Below, in pieces: positions 8,768 through 14,699 of a stretch of DNA of 64,000 nucleotides. Positions within the stretch are counted from its first letter, which is position 1, and every line of letters starts with the position of its first letter. A program made the position numbers and the translations under genes. Origin of the DNA: an uncultured Candidatus Rokubacteria bacterium (lineage in GTDB: Bacteria > Methylomirabilota > Methylomirabilia > Rokubacteriales > DASRDR01); the NCBI GenBank assembly GCA_963805625.1, contig CAWDVE010000010.1, positions 1,984,001-2,048,000 on the forward strand, given 5' to 3'. Under the pieces are notes generated by a model. The model saw nothing but the letters and a program-made list of their open reading frames with translations. It did no database searches and was not told the origin of the DNA.

Positions 8768-9768
8768 CAGATGTTCCGGCAGAGGGCCACGGCCGTCTCG
8801 AAGACCGTCTTCTCCGTCGGCACCGTGAGGTCCTCGAGGACCGGCGAGAACGGCACCGGCACGTCCATGGCGCCCATGCGCTTGACTGGCGCGTCGAGGT
8901 AGTAGAAGGCGCCATCGGCGATCACCGACGCGATCTCGGCGGTAACGCCGTAACGCTCGTAGCCCTCGTCGACGACGAGGGCCCGCGAGGTTTTTTTCGC
9001 GGAGGCGATCAGCGTCTCCTTGTCGAGGGGCGCGGTCGTCCGCGGATCGATCACCTCGGCGCTGATTCCGGTGTCCTCGAGGAGCTTGGCGGCGCCCAGC
9101 GCCACCTGCACCATGCTGCTGGTGGCGACGATGGTGATGTCGCGCCCGGCACGCTTGACGTCGGCCACCCCGAACGGGATCGTGAAGTCGCCCTCGGCCA
9201 CCGGGCCCTTCATGCGGTACATCATCTTGTCCTCGAAGATGACGACCGGGCTGTCGTCGCGGATCGCCGCCTTCATCAGGCCCTTGGCGTCGTGGGGCGT
9301 CGACGGCAGCGCCACCTTGAGCCCGGGGACGTGGCTGACCCACGCCTGAAGGGACTGCGAGTGCTGGGCGGCCGAGCGGCGAGTGGCGCCCAGCGTCGTC
9401 CGGAAGACGATGGGCACCTTGATCTTGCCGCCCGACATGTAGTGCGCCTTGGCGGCTTGGTTCACCATCTGGTCCATCGTCAGCGTGATGAAGTCGCCGA
9501 ACATGATGTCGACGATGGGGCGCATGCCGGTCATGGCCGCGCCTACGCCGATCCCGGCATAGCCGGGCTCGGAGATCGGCGTGTCGATGATCCGATCGGT
9601 TCCGAACTCCTGCACCAGCCCGAGCAGCACCTTGAAGGGATGGCCGGCCTCGGCGACGTCCTCGCCGATCACGAACACGCGCGTGTCCCGGCGCATCTCC
9701 TCGGCGATCGCCTCGCGGACCGCCTCGCCGTACGTCAGCTCTCGCACCCCGGCTTCAGGCGTAGACAT
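8767..9768 (-). CDS. 2-oxoacid/acetoin dehydrogenase E1 beta subunit
   Basis: IGEDV, DTPISE, AQHSQS, EVIDPRT. Confidence 0.92.
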   Translation of the reverse strand: MSTPEAGVRELTYGEAVREAIAEEMRRDTRVFVIGEDVAEAGHPFKVLLGLVQEFGTDRIIDTPISEPGYAGIGVGAAMTGMRPIVDIMFGDFITLTMDQMVNQAAKAHYMSGGKIKVPIVFRTTLGATRRSAAQHSQSLQAWVSHVPGLKVALPSTPHDAKGLMKAAIRDDSPVVIFEDKMMYRMKGPVAEGDFTIPFGVADVKRAGRDITIVATSSMVQVALGAAKLLEDTGISAEVIDPRTTAPLDKETLIASAKKTSRALVVDEGYERYGVTAEIASVIADGAFYYLDAPVKRMGAMDVPVPFSPVLEDLTVPTEKTVFETAVALCRNI

Positions 9769-10744
9769 CCTGGGTGACCTCGCTCGGCTCGGGATAGGCG
9801 GCAGCCAGCGCGTACTGCACGGCGCTGTCGATCTCGGTCTTCACGTCGCCGAGGATGCGCTCGAACACGCCCGCCTCGGAGAGCCCCTGGCCGATGAGCC
9901 GCTCCGACAGGGTCTCCAGCGGGTCGTGCTTCGTCATCCACTCGCGCTCCTCGTCGCGTGACCGGTACTCCCGGTTCACGTCGCCGACGTGGTGCCCGTA
10001 GTACCGGTACGTCTTGCACTCGAGGAACGCCGGCCCCTCGCCGCGGCGCGCCCGCTCGACCAGCCGCCGCATCGCTCGGTTGACCGCCTGGACGTCCTGG
10101 CCGTCGACGCTCTCGGCGTGCACCCCGAAGGCGCGCGGGCGGGCGAGGATCTCGCCGGCCACCGTCTCGCTGCACGAGGTGTACTCGCCGTAGAGGTTGT
10201 TCTCGCAGACGTAGATGACGGGCAGCTTCCACAGAGAGGCCATGTTCATGACCTCGTAGAGGAGACCCTGACCGAGCGCGCCGTCGCCGAAGAAGCACGC
10301 CACGACCTGCCCGGTTCCGCGCATCTTGGCCGACAGCGCCGCACCCGTGGCGATCCCGGCGGAGCCGCCCACGATTGCGTTGGCGCCCAGGTTTCCCGTC
10401 TCGGGATCAGCGATGTGCATCGAGCCACCCTTGCCCCGGCAGTAGCCGGGCCCCTTACCGAGCAGCTCGGCAAACATCCGGTCGACCGCGGCGCCCTTGG
10501 CCAGGCAGTGGCCGTGCCCCCGATGGGTGCTCGTGATGAAGTCGTCCCTCCGCAGGGCCTCGCAGACGCCGACGGCGACGGCTTCCTGGCCGACGTAAAG
10601 GTGCGCCAGGCCCGGCATCTTCGCGCCCTTGTACAGCTCCTGCACCTGCTCCTCGAAGGCGCGGATCTTCGCCATCTGGCGGTACATGTGGAGGTGCTGC
10701 TCGAGCTCCATCCTGGGTTCGATCGTATGCGTCGTCATCGACAC
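9755..10744 (-). CDS. 2-oxoacid/acetoin dehydrogenase E1 alpha subunit (AcoA-like)
   Basis: HLYVGQEAV, STHRGHGH, GKGGSMH, TPP motif GDGA...ENN, TYRYYGH. Confidence 0.92.
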   Translation of the reverse strand: MSMTTHTIEPRMELEQHLHMYRQMAKIRAFEEQVQELYKGAKMPGLAHLYVGQEAVAVGVCEALRRDDFITSTHRGHGHCLAKGAAVDRMFAELLGKGPGYCRGKGGSMHIADPETGNLGANAIVGGSAGIATGAALSAKMRGTGQVVACFFGDGALGQGLLYEVMNMASLWKLPVIYVCENNLYGEYTSCSETVAGEILARPRAFGVHAESVDGQDVQAVNRAMRRLVERARRGEGPAFLECKTYRYYGHHVGDVNREYRSRDEEREWMTKHDPLETLSERLIGQGLSEAGVFERILGDVKTEIDSAVQYALAAAYPEPSEVTQDVYA

Positions 10745-10800
10745 GTCCCTTCGAGTAGTCGGGATCCCGGCGCGCCCTTGCGATCCGCCGGCTCCCGCTG

Positions 10801-10829
10801 ATGCTCCACCGAGGGTGGGGCGGAGTCAA
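10801..10829 (-). promoter_or_regulatory. Possible sigma70 promoter of the E1/E2 operon
   Basis: TTGACT-17 nt-GAGCAT on the minus strand; weak -10 element. Confidence 0.35.
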
Positions 10830-10917
10830 GTAGCGGCGGTGGTTGTCCTTCCCGGCGCGCCTGGCCGCCATGCGGGCGAACGCGCGGCCCCGAGGGACCA
10901 GGTCGGCGCCCTCGCTG

Positions 10918-11412
10918 TCAGTCCGGGTGGTACTTCAGCATCATCGCGCGCAGGTCCTGACGTAGCTCTTCGAGGGTGGGGCGGCCGACGAACCAGCCAC
11001 CGTCGTAGATCTTGTGGATGGCGAGATCTGGCCCCACCGAGAAGCTGTAGGGGATCGCGATGCGAGGGTGCGCTCGGTCGGTCTCATCCACGATGTCCAG
11101 CCCCATGATGGCCCGACGCTCGTGATCACTCAGGAACGCGAACGTCGCGCCCAGCCCGGCACGCAGGGCCCCGCACACCTCCGGGGGATCCGTGCTGATC
11201 ACCGCGAGGTGGCAGTAGTTCACGTCGAGCTCGCGCTGGAAATCGGTCAAGTGCCGCAACTGGCACTGGCACTTCGGTCACCAGTAGCCGCGGTAGAAGC
11301 TGACGATCAGCGGGTACCCGGCGGCCAGCTCGGAAAGCCTCACCGGCACCCGGCGATGATCGGGGAGTTCAAGGTCGGGAAGGTGGCTACCTATCACCAG
11401 ATCAGCGCGCAT
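10918..11412 (-). CDS. AhpC/TSA-like redoxin with in-frame UGA (putative selenoprotein, UxxC)
   Basis: GGGAGG SD then ATG at 11412; MRADLVIGSHLPDLELPD...FYRGYW-TGA(11278-11280)-PKC continues in frame into ORF 10918..11259. Confidence 0.85.
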
Positions 11413-11869
11413 GCCGGCCTCCCATGACGTCAGGGGTCATCGGTCGCCTCTCCGTTGCTTCTCGTACCCGGCAGATTTGAACCAAAGCCTGTCCTGCCCC
11501 TTCGCCAAGCCTACCGGTAAGTCAGTTTGGCGCGTTCCCAGCGTGGCCGGAGTCTAGCGCGCCGCGGGCCGCCTCGGACAGGCCCGGGGCGATCATCCCG
11601 GTTCCGGGCGGTACACGGATCTCACTGGGGCGGTGCGTGCATCGAGGGAGACGGAGCGTCGCATTGTCACACTCCCAGTGCGCTGGGGTGGTCGCGGTGC
11701 CTCGCGGGTGCGACGATGGCACCGCCGCGCAGACCGGAGCAAGGGTGCGGGATAGCCGTGTGATGCATAGAGATCATTTGCGATGCAGGATCCCCCCCAC
11801 GACGCGATTCCTCCTGGTGATCTACCGCCGCGTGGCCCGGTCGCGAGTGGCGCCGGCGCCTAATCCGGC

Positions 11870-11962
11870 GCCGGCCGCCTCGTAGAACCTCGAAATCGCT
11901 CGCGAGGCGCGGCGGAGCCCTCCACACGCGCTGTCCGCCGCCGCCCGGGCGGGTTCCGTCAA
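11870..11962 (-). pseudogene. Possible MarR-family regulator N-terminal remnant
   Basis: ACGGLRRASRAISRFYEAA resembles MarR-type CxxxxLRRAARAxxxxYD; breaks off afterwards. Confidence 0.35.
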
Positions 11963-12074
11963 GAGGACGGACGGATCCCCGGCCGTGCCCCCCAGTCTTA
12001 GGTGTCGCGCACGAACGCGAGCACCCCGCGAGCCACGAACATACGCCCCCCGGGAGCCAGAGGACGTACCGCGC

Positions 12075-12398
12075 CTACGGTGTCGGGGCTTGAGGCGGCA
12101 AGCCCGGCGGCAGGGGGGGCGGTTGCCCCGGGGGAGTTGACCCCGGCGGAGGCAGCGCCCGCGCCGAGGGGGCCCAGTATGCGGGACGCCAGACCCACGC
12201 CGCCCCACCCCAGACCCACTGGGCCGGGACGTACACGTATCCCGGAGGAGCTCCAACGGGGGCCGGGGTGACATAGGGCGGTGGCGCGGGCCCCACGTAG
12301 TAACACCCGGCGAGGATCAGGCCGATGCCGAGCAGCAGCGCGACCACGACCACGCTCTCGCTACCGAGGAGCCTGGGACCCGGGGCGCGCCACCCCAT
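12075..12398 (-). CDS. Small proline-rich lipoprotein with YXWGXW-like repeat
   Basis: Hydrophobic stretch with LAGC lipobox; YVYVPAQWVWGGAAWVWRPAYW. Confidence 0.6.
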   Translation of the reverse strand: MGWRAPGPRLLGSESVVVVALLLGIGLILAGCYYVGPAPPPYVTPAPVGAPPGYVYVPAQWVWGGAAWVWRPAYWAPSARALPPPGSTPPGQPPPLPPGLPPQAPTP

Positions 12399-12400
12399 GG

Positions 12401-12943
12401 CTACTGGCAGATTTGCTGACTGTAGGCGGGAATCCAGGCCGTGACGCGCTGCCCGTTCTGGAGCGTCCGGGTCTCATAGTGCCCTTGGACAGTCACCGTC
12501 TCACAGGCCTGGCCGCCGCTCGGAGCCGAGCCCTGGGCGGACGCCTGCGGAGGATTCTCCGGCGGACTGCCATAGTTCAAGCTAGCTGACGGATCCGCCT
12601 GGCCCCCTGCCCCTGGGACTGGCGGCGGGGCATAGACCGGAGGTGAGTAGGTCGGATAGCTGTAGGCCGGATACGGGTAGGTCGGGTACGCGTAGGCCGG
12701 GTACGGGTAGGCCGGGTAGGCGTACGGGTATGCGGGATACGCATAAGCTGGGGGATACCAGTAGGGGGACGTAGCAAGGGCGCCGATCCCCAATCCGAGG
12801 GCGAAGCCCCCCCAGCCGTACCCACCCCCATGCCATCCACCATGCCCGCGCCAGCCCCCGCCGCGAACCCACGCTTGAGCGGGTCCCGCCAGGAGCGGCA
12901 CGAAGAGCACGGCTACGAGCACGATCGCTGTCAGCTTCCTCAT
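12401..12943 (-). CDS. Secreted Gly/Tyr/Pro-rich low-complexity protein
   Basis: Signal peptide ending AQA, GGWRGHGGWHGG, tandem YPAY/YPT repeats, C-terminal Cys pair. Confidence 0.7.
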   Translation of the reverse strand: MRKLTAIVLVAVLFVPLLAGPAQAWVRGGGWRGHGGWHGGGYGWGGFALGLGIGALATSPYWYPPAYAYPAYPYAYPAYPYPAYAYPTYPYPAYSYPTYSPPVYAPPPVPGAGGQADPSASLNYGSPPENPPQASAQGSAPSGGQACETVTVQGHYETRTLQNGQRVTAWIPAYSQQICQ

Positions 12944-13115
12944 GTTCCGCCTTCCTCTACAGGGTTCGACGACTGTAACGCGCCTCCGATTCTCCTCCGA
13001 GGCGGGTCCCTCGGGGCGCGCATAGTCCAATGGATCATGTCATGCCGGGATCGGGGATGACCGCCGCTTGACGTGCCGCTCGTGGCCGCATAGAGTCGGG
13101 CTAGCCGGGTCCGTG

Positions 13116-14699
13116 ATGGAGGCGCTCCCGAGCCGCCCGCAGGCCGCCCTCGCTCTCTTCCTCGAGGTGAGCCGGTCGTTCCACGCGCTGGTCGAGCCGG
13201 GGGAGCTCCTTTCTCTGATCACCGAGCGCGTTCGAACGCTGCTCGACGCCGAAGCGTGCTCCGTGATCCTGTACGATCCGGACCGTGGCGACCTCTACAT
13301 TCCGGTGTCCAGCGATGCGCGGATCGAGTCGCCCGACCGGCTCCGCGAAGTGCGCTTTCGCGTGTCGGAGGGCATTGCCGGGTGGGTGTTCCGCGAGGGT
13401 CGCTCTGTCTTGGTGCCGGACGTCGCCAGCGATCCTCGCTTCTACGATGCGGTCGACCGTGAGACGGGCACCGCCAGCCACTCCCTGCTATGCGCCCCTC
13501 TCCTGACGCGGTCGGGGACCATCGGTGTTACCCAGGTCATCAACAAGAGGTCCGGGATCTTCACGCAAGACGACCTCGATCTCCTCGATGCCATTGCTGG
13601 GACCATTGCAGTGGCCCTCGAGAACGCCCGGCTCCACGAAGCCTTAAGACGCGAGACGGAGCGGATCCAGGGGGAGAACCTCGAGCTGCGGCGGGCCGTC
13701 GGCGAGCACTTCCGCGGGATCCTCGGGACGAGCTCGACGCTCCGGCGAGTCCTCGAACAGGCGGCTCAGGCGGCCCCGACGCGCGCCACCATCACGCTGC
13801 TGGGCGAGACCGGCACGGGCAAGGAGCTATTCGCGCGTTCCATCCACGCGGCCAGCGATCGCGCAGCAGGGCCATTCGTGGTGGTGAACTGCGCTGCGAT
13901 CCCTACCACCCTGCTGGAGGCGGAGCTGTTCGGTTTCGAGCGCGGCGCGTTCACCGGAGCGGTGGCGTCGCGCCGAGGGCGCTTCGAGGTAGCGCACGGA
14001 GGTACGCTTTTCCTTGACGAGATCGGGGAGCTCGAGCCAGCCCTGCAGGCGAAGCTCCTCCGTGTATTGGAGTCTGGCGAGGTACAGCCGCTCGGCAGTG
14101 AGCGAGCGCATCGCGTAGACGTTCGAATCGTCACGGCCACCAACCGCGACCTGCAGAAGCTTCTCGCCGCCGGGAGCTTTCGCGAGGACCTCTACTGGCG
14201 GATCAACGTCATCACGCTCGAGCTACCGCCTCTCCGCGAGCGGCGCGAGGACCTGCCGCTCTTGATCCATCACATCCTGGGCCGGCTCGACGCCGAGCTG
14301 GGGCGCGGCCACCGCGTGCGCACAGATGCCGAGGCGGTGCTCTTGGCGTACGACTATCCGGGTAACGTGCGCGAGCTGGAGAACATCCTCCGTCGCGCGG
14401 CCACCCTCGCCACGGGCCCGGAGATCACTCCGGAGGATCTCCCGCCCCACGTGACGGCGCGGGACGAGTACGTGACCCCAGCGACGAACGTCGAGCTGAA
14501 GGCCGCGAAGGCCGCGGCCGCGGCGGCGGCGGCCCAGGCGGTCGAGCGGCGCTTCCTCACTCAGCTTCTGCGGGACACAGCCGGGAACGTGTCAGAAGCC
14601 GCGCGGCGGGTGGGCATGAACCGGACCTGGCTCCACCAACTCCTCTCGCGGCACCGGATCGACGCCAAAGGATTCCAGCCCCCCGCCTCCGCCGGATAG
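13116..14699 (+). CDS. Sigma54-dependent activator (GAF-AAA+-Fis HTH)
   Basis: GAF domain, GETGTGKE, GAFTGA, LFLDEIGE, YPGNVRELEN, GNVSEAARRVG. Confidence 0.93.
   Translation: MEALPSRPQAALALFLEVSRSFHALVEPGELLSLITERVRTLLDAEACSVILYDPDRGDLYIPVSSDARIESPDRLREVRFRVSEGIAGWVFREGRSVLVPDVASDPRFYDAVDRETGTASHSLLCAPLLTRSGTIGVTQVINKRSGIFTQDDLDLLDAIAGTIAVALENARLHEALRRETERIQGENLELRRAVGEHFRGILGTSSTLRRVLEQAAQAAPTRATITLLGETGTGKELFARSIHAASDRAAGPFVVVNCAAIPTTLLEAELFGFERGAFTGAVASRRGRFEVAHGGTLFLDEIGELEPALQAKLLRVLESGEVQPLGSERAHRVDVRIVTATNRDLQKLLAAGSFREDLYWRINVITLELPPLRERREDLPLLIHHILGRLDAELGRGHRVRTDAEAVLLAYDYPGNVRELENILRRAATLATGPEITPEDLPPHVTARDEYVTPATNVELKAAKAAAAAAAAQAVERRFLTQLLRDTAGNVSEAARRVGMNRTWLHQLLSRHRIDAKGFQPPASAG

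Follow-up and report, generated by a model that had tools for sequence, protein, structure and literature searches.

A redoxin gene of 164 codons on the minus strand of the window (the whole 64,000-nucleotide stretch of Rokubacteria DNA that was analyzed) contains an in-frame UGA at codon 45. This codon is very probably decoded as selenocysteine (Sec) via SelB, tRNA-Sec, and a hairpin located 16 nt downstream. We read UGA45 as Sec because the genome contains Sec genes, TGA and Cys codons exchange at this position among homologues, purifying selection is equal on both sides of it, and the hairpin is conserved. In bacteria, Sec recoding uses SelB, tRNA-Sec, and a hairpin 3' of the UGA. The features of the locus are as follows.

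11418..11423, minus strand: Shine-Dalgarno sequence GGGAGG, 5 nt ahead of the ATG at 11412, assigned from the sequence
10918..11412, minus strand: gene of a 164-aa Prx-like redoxin (PF00578, AhpC-TSA), with the frame read through TGA45
11278..11280, minus strand: in-frame TGA at codon 45, likely Sec45, the first position of U-P-K-C
11269..11271, minus strand: Cys48, the second position of UxxC and the predicted resolving residue
11250..11267, minus strand: likely bacterial SECIS, stem AGUGCC/GGCACU (6 bp), loop AGUUGC
11249..11274, minus strand: outer register AAGUGCC/GGCACUU with a 12-nt loop, probably non-functional
10918..11259, minus strand: 113-aa ORF started at TTG, an annotation fragment and the piece reported by gene callers

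From 11412 to 10918, the minus strand was read as 164 codons, and TGA45 (RGYW-U-PKC) was the sole interruption of the open frame. The translated frame was MRADLVIGSHLPDLELPDHRR...IVSFYRGYW, TGA (11280-11278), PKCQ, and it was closed by a TGA stop at 10920-10918. An earlier note on this DNA had described an unshifted frame with TGA at codon 45, then PKCQ, and a stop at 10918, preceded by a GGGAGG Shine-Dalgarno sequence. The frame was confirmed in all these parts, and the Shine-Dalgarno sequence was found at 11423-11418, 5 nt from ATG 11412. Most Rokubacteria orthologues also had a purine-rich, Shine-Dalgarno-like site, followed by ATG or GTG 44 codons ahead of the TGA. The note was also right that ORF calling truncates the protein to 113 aa, as the ORF list contained only the TTG-started piece (11259-10918) at this locus. 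The full-length reading corrects an annotation error across the subfamily, since at least 98 database matches, among the 120 listed of 803, were truncated entries beginning past codon 45.

The surroundings of the gene were also scanned. Rfam gave no match in window positions 9000-14000, and the promoter and terminator scan gave no site in 10700-12100. In homologous loci, the pyruvate/acetoin dehydrogenase-type E1 genes that lie downstream showed no operon tie with the redoxin gene. Upstream, 12075-13030 on the minus strand contained two small ORFs of 107 and 209 aa, both rich in Pro and Tyr, that had no Pfam or NCBIfam match, and a GAF/sigma-54 activator gene was located beyond them (13068-14699, plus strand).

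Codon 45 was compared among homologues. An orthologue at 67% identity or higher was found in 23 of 60 related genomes; two genomes flagged as unpublished (G038 and G055) were counted among these 60 only. Relatives that all carried TGC or TGT had been named by the earlier note as evidence against its reading, but codon 45 was TGA in 24/24 orthologous loci, including the window's own. For the best 80 of 111 GTDB matches, it was TGA in 52, TGC in 26, TGT in 2, and TAA or TAG in none. As the note had expected, the TGA was aligned with Cys (52 TGA and 28 Cys loci among the best 80 of 111), and the frame was conserved on both sides of it, which together are the marks of a selenoprotein gene. The 80-locus set overlaps with the 24-locus set, the homologues are mutually related, and the counts are non-independent; no statistical test is claimed. 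They include genomes flagged as unpublished, namely G130 (L083, in alignments A1 and A2) and G086 and G087 (L117 and L118). Codons 2-44 had a dN/dS of 0.197 and codons 56-164 one of 0.199, as calculated from the window gene and 14 orthologues of the same length.

These data also bear on the possibility that a Cys gene acquired the TGA by nonsense mutation or through an error in sequencing. The copies in two relatives (G001 and G005) were split and appeared broken in other ways, which speaks for this possibility, but TGA45 was common to 52 loci, down to 51% identity and in several phyla, and dN/dS was about 0.2 on both sides. In addition, the codon was crossed by single contigs in each of two independent soil DNA runs (X1 and X7), and the 4 and 5 differences of these contigs were all outside codon 45, indicating that TGA45 is not an assembly error. 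The 52-locus TGA, the dN/dS values, and the independent runs rule this explanation out, and we give it practically no chance. RNA runs X16-X19 gave short contigs only; one X16 contig crossed the TGA and was possibly DNA.

If TGA45 were a true stop, the locus would encode two short proteins of 44 and 113 aa, the second starting from TTG at 11259. The C-terminal pieces in the database (the at least 98 among the 120 listed matches) and the TTG at codon 52 in 33 of the 52 TGA loci agree with such a split, but codon 52 was GTC in 14 loci and TTA in 5, so 19/52 lacked this start. Codon 45 was never TAA or TAG, whereas the terminal stop of the TGA genes varied (n = 51: TGA 34, TAG 14, and TAA 3). The Cys homologues were single chains, and the full-length ones started at the same place as the TGA frame. 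The split would also cut the fold of the predicted model at the active site. A true stop is thus highly unlikely, and Sec at codon 45 remains our reading.

After the UGA, AGUGCC is repeated, and two 5' arms compete for one 3' arm, GGCACU(U). The earlier note had proposed the outer pairing, AAGUGCC (11274-11268) with GGCACUU (11255-11249), as the hairpin for Sec insertion. This pairing with its 12-nt loop does exist (41-nt fold), but comparison among homologues favored the inner AGUGCC/GGCACU as the SECIS register. The inner loop starts 16 nt past the UGA, and its second nucleotide is G and its third U; the inner hairpin had a folding energy of -9.3 kcal/mol and a z score of -2.5. PMC13188914 describes a bSECIS as having a loop of 3-9 nt with G at its first or second position, a stem of 4-16 bp, a spacing of 16-37 nt, and an MFE at or below -7.5. 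The inner register fits this model (loop 6, stem 6, spacing 16, and -9.3).

As a SECIS, the outer register was rejected. Its complete 7/7 pairing was observed in only 14 of the 52 TGA loci, its covariation of 0.040 was reached in 457 of 500 shuffles, and both its 10-nt spacing and its 12-nt loop were outside the published model. Taken alone, the fold proposed in the note did not exceed chance, with z scores of -1.2 (41 nt) and +0.9 (61 nt). Longer fragments folded no better than shuffles (z +0.9 and +0.4), a point that also counts against the hairpin as a SECIS in general.

A hairpin with its loop exactly 16 nt after the codon and the loop start NG[G/U] was found in 52/52 TGA loci versus 0/28 Cys loci, a spacing criterion that was set after the data were seen. 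In the background, 17% of TGA triplets also passed the wider published model, as did 12/28 Cys genes. At spacing 16, the background was 1.2% of 3000 sampled TGA triplets, and of 3000 trials of synonymous recoding with the codon usage of the genome, 1.0% preserved the spacing-16 hairpin. TTG, the codon used in the loop, makes up 3.1% of Leu codons in the genome. Across the loci, the stem formed in three registers, whose loops had 6, 7, and 4 nt, and the loop G at +18 was invariant in 40 aligned rows. Synonymous variability of codons 49-55 was 0.176 versus a median of 0.367, the lowest of all 7-codon windows. Covariation of the inner register was 0.230, and 0/500 shuffles were as high; this score is weaker than it looks, as it comes partly from rows pairing in shifted registers. 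These sequence comparisons suggested that the inner hairpin at 11250..11267 is likely the bacterial SECIS.

Three Cys relatives had traces at the SECIS position. The stem was complete in L087 (Anaerolineales), with AGAU as the loop, and partial in L086 (Anaerolineales); in L092, the loop was AGUU and the stem was broken. They are possibly decayed or incipient SECIS elements.

The genome (G000) was 99.9% complete with 6.3% contamination. The earlier note had made its reading depend on Sec machinery, and selA, selB, tRNA-Sec (selC), and a TGA-containing selD were all present. The selA match was 505.7 bits, the wing of selB was detected, and tRNA-Sec(UCA) scored 76.9 bits. These three were grouped on contig C21, and selD, with one in-frame TGA, was on the window's own contig (C10).

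A variant tRNA that reads UGA as Cys or Trp instead of Sec would agree with the Cys at codon 45 of the homologues. However, the tRNA with TCA anticodon was typed as SeC by ARAGORN, selA, selB, and seleno-SelD accompany it, and TGA also terminates the window's redoxin gene itself. Such a tRNA is very improbable, and we retain Sec for codon 45.

Sec markers were also searched in the genomes of the homologues. SelB was above cut-off in 45/52 TGA carriers. Among the 7 TGA carriers missing it, 2 had selA and 3 had TGA-containing SelD, one of them also with tRNA-Sec. At least one Sec marker was found in 50/52 TGA-carrying genomes; the other two (G126 and G131, completeness figures not given) had none in the searches run. 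For the Cys carriers, selB was found in 15/28.

Other TGA genes were found in G000. Of its 30 AhpC-TSA matches, 14 contained a single TGA, which was always located at a TxxU or UxxC position. A hairpin with a G[G/U] loop was present in 12 of the 14 TGA redoxins and in SelD (range tested, 14-24 nt). TGA was also present in 2 of 12 CMD/AhpD matches. G000 likely has a large selenoproteome. In an ab initio census, hairpin-bearing candidates were 24/103 for TGA versus 8/103 for TAG; the census was insensitive, as it missed the window's redoxin gene, and no genome total was derived from it. The Sec of FdhA lies outside the PF04879 domain, so the absence of TGA in the PF04879 matches (0/11) is uninformative.

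The 13 further TGA redoxins, the two TGA CMD/AhpD genes, and seleno-SelD were distributed across C4, C10, C11, C13, C16, C17, C19, C21, and C24. Three more candidates were noted at the motif level: C11:99871 (STPT-U-PHC), C14:196816 (CLGTG-U-IP), and C24:81402 (LYCS-U-PN). With about half of the AhpC-TSA redoxins of G000 recoded, the data support heavy selenocysteine use by soil Rokubacteria. This agrees with a Methylomirabilota MAG with 63 predicted selenoproteins, cited in the review PMC13188914.

The read-through protein matched PF00578 with 60.2 bits (cut-off 26; E 2.4e-16; residues 7-132) and PF08534 with 37.3 bits. Its AlphaFold model, built from a 53-sequence alignment, had a pLDDT of 94.8, and residue 45 was located immediately before helix 46-65. 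The best structural matches of the model (VIA-align) were BCP/AhpE peroxiredoxins with Z of 21.6 (BcpB) and 21.2, ahead of ResA-type proteins (17.5). Against 5epf, 154 residues were aligned with Z 21.6 and rmsd 2.5; the sequence match to 2cx3 was weak (E 8e-7). The predicted model thus has a Prx-type thioredoxin fold. The protein is likely cytoplasmic, with no signal peptide apparent by eye.

The residues of a true peroxiredoxin were not found in this fold. In ungapped alignments (2cx3, 5epf, and 2ywn), Arg41 fell on the motif Pro and Sec45 on Thr/Ser. When solved peroxiredoxins were aligned, their peroxidatic Cys corresponded to Cys48 and their catalytic Arg to Pro121. Profile alignments opened a gap of 3 residues and matched the peroxidatic Cys to position 45 instead; they gave no motif Pro and again put Pro121 on the Arg. 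From these sequence comparisons, the peroxiredoxin mapping of position 45 is therefore not unanimous between alignment sets. Both the PxxxT/SxxC(U) motif and the conserved catalytic Arg were missing. Pro121 was invariant in 53 sequences, a position that we take to be the place of the thioredoxin cis-Pro. The protein has a peroxiredoxin-type fold, yet is not a true peroxiredoxin, and we label it Prx-like because the PxxxT/SxxC...R triad is absent. The earlier note had called it a Sec-containing peroxiredoxin-like protein; the Sec UxxC redoxin in this description was supported, but the peroxiredoxin label fails on the missing triad.

Related classes have been described. PMC1088965 reports 22 Prx-like sequences, 21 of which have UXXC in place of TXXU; PMC2398784 counts 225 "Prx-like 1" PF00578 UxxC genes. 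PMC13188914 also lists a Prx-like UxxC class, and PMC3514251 describes PRX-like proteins without the peroxiredoxin triad. The window gene has both defining properties of the UxxC class, PF00578 above cut-off and UxxC (U45-P-K-C48) in place of TxxU. By domain and motif, it can be placed in the "Prx-like thiol:disulfide oxidoreductase" class (PF00578, UxxC) of the literature. PF00578, Sec at the first position of UxxC, and a SECIS directly 3' of the UGA are shared with this class. A difference is that the window subfamily has a distinct RGYW-U-PKC ... GRPTxEELR signature and that its Cys forms are CxxE or CxxD. Glu or Asp was at the second motif position in 28/28 Cys loci, and no CxxC homologue was seen among them. 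In the 52 TGA loci, residue 48 was Cys in 48 and Asp in 4.

With the true peroxiredoxins (BCP/PrxQ and AhpE; Sec form PxxxTxxU), the window protein shares the fold and a weak sequence match. Unlike them, it has neither the Pro nor the Thr/Ser nor the catalytic Arg, and its Sec is at the Thr position. The SelL-related family NF040769 shares the redoxin fold and UxxC, and all 53 aligned members match it weakly, but the window protein had only 26.4 bits versus its cut-off of 120. The CDD family PRX_like2 (cd02970), as described in PMC3514251, is CxxC-type, with the second Cys as the peroxidatic Cys and the other triad residues absent; the window protein resembles it in these qualitative features. 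No NCBIfam model was near cut-off for the window subfamily, and a Cys homologue (P0092) matched unnamed redoxin clusters only in the ESM Atlas. The subfamily could already be in BSepDB. Prx-like UxxC selenoproteins have been catalogued since 2005, and the window gene adds a member, not a new class or recoding mechanism.

For the decoding, SelB would bind the loop G of the hairpin and deliver Sec-tRNA to UGA45, as in established bacterial Sec recoding. The selenolate of Sec45, positioned where helix 46-65 begins, would then attack an oxidized substrate, which may be a disulfide or a sulfenylated thiol and is less likely a peroxide reduced directly. Cys48 would resolve the intermediate as a selenenyl-sulfide, and re-reduction of this bond would fall to a thioredoxin or a small-thiol system. 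Given Sec, we lean toward this thioredoxin-like oxidoreductase cycle, with Sec45 as the nucleophile and Cys48 as the resolving residue, over a direct peroxidase.

A selenoprotein peroxidase is a lesser possibility, in which Sec45 reduces hydroperoxides directly and invariant Arg41 or Arg144 replaces the Prx Arg. The closest folds would suit it, being BCP/AhpE (Z 21.6 and 21.2) rather than ResA (17.5), as would the single Cys of the Cys relatives (CxxE/CxxD), which resembles monothiol peroxidases. Some relatives also adjoin EgtD and an EgtB-like gene, BolA-Grx4, or disulfide reductases. Against it, the triad is not kept, with Arg41 at Pro, Sec45 at Thr/Ser, and Pro121 at Arg, and Pro121 is invariant in the 53 sequences. 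The two cycles differ in function only, and a peroxidase is compatible with Sec recoding; we continue to favor the oxidoreductase.

A tree was built with 86 rows, namely the window, 77 loci with usable frame and start, and 8 database proteins; L061, L085, and L110 were left out, and only a midpoint root was used. It contained a CxxE clade (mostly Actinomycetota), a C/UxxD clade of longer proteins, and several UxxC groups. The UxxC groups were from Rokubacteria and from Binatia/Deltaproteobacteria, and their mutual relations were not settled by the midpoint-rooted tree. The nearest named homologues were from Rokubacteria/Methylomirabilota. The longer proteins of the C/UxxD clade had a C-terminal cold-shock domain. 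Within this clade, four Dehalococcoidia UxxD genes nested beside Anaerolineales CxxD genes (midpoint-rooted tree), which still had a stem, partial or full, at the SECIS place, but with AGAU as its loop. A copy in an Actinomycetota-labelled MAG was nearly identical to a Rokubacteria copy (L048/L049), through mis-binning or recent transfer.

The four Dehalococcoidia genes (L088-L091:3001-3879) had TGA in a U-P-R-D motif and a spacing-16 hairpin, and selB was present in 4/4 genomes. Their C-terminal cold-shock domain was scanned in L088. No literature match was found for a selenoprotein redoxin-cold-shock fusion of Dehalococcoidia, and "UxxD" is absent from the available parts of PMC13188914 and PMC2398784. 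Redoxin-cold-shock fusions were also recorded for two chytrid fungi (P0177 and P0184). Whether these homologues form an uncatalogued redoxin subfamily is rather doubtful; such a subfamily would combine repeated Cys/Sec switching, UxxC, CxxE, and C/UxxD sites, the Dehalococcoidia selenoprotein-cold-shock fusion, the +18 loop G, and the three-register stem. If true, the fusion would link a selenium redox switch to RNA binding. The redoxin family is also a natural test set for SECIS geometry and Cys/Sec exchange.

Gene neighborhoods varied, and none that was conserved across the homologous loci pointed to a substrate. The EgtD/EgtB-like, BolA-Grx4, DCC1-like, and disulfide-reductase neighbors are weak hints of thiol metabolism. 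In a Rokubacteria-dominated subgroup (L064-L066, L071-L074, and L106), an EgtB/OvoA/SenA-like gene, below all cut-offs, was nearby, and the redoxin gene was followed by that of a conserved protein of about 280 aa without Pfam or NCBIfam match. In L066, EgtD was also present near the redoxin gene and was above cut-off. In Binatia/Deltaproteobacteria (L075, L076, L078-L080, and L082-L084), the redoxin gene was followed by BolA and Grx4 genes, 8 loci each; these names were taken from L075. In L097 (3504-4010) and about 25 Cys loci, the CxxE gene was closely followed by that of a conserved 150-170 aa protein without Pfam match, often with overlapping stop and start. A pyridine nucleotide-disulfide reductase was near about 15 of these approximately 25 CxxE loci. 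A second TGA redoxin (LRHYG-U-IFC) was located downstream in convergent orientation in L044, L047, and L111 (L015, L018, and L032), and L044 and L047 had a DCC1-like thiol-disulfide oxidoreductase upstream.
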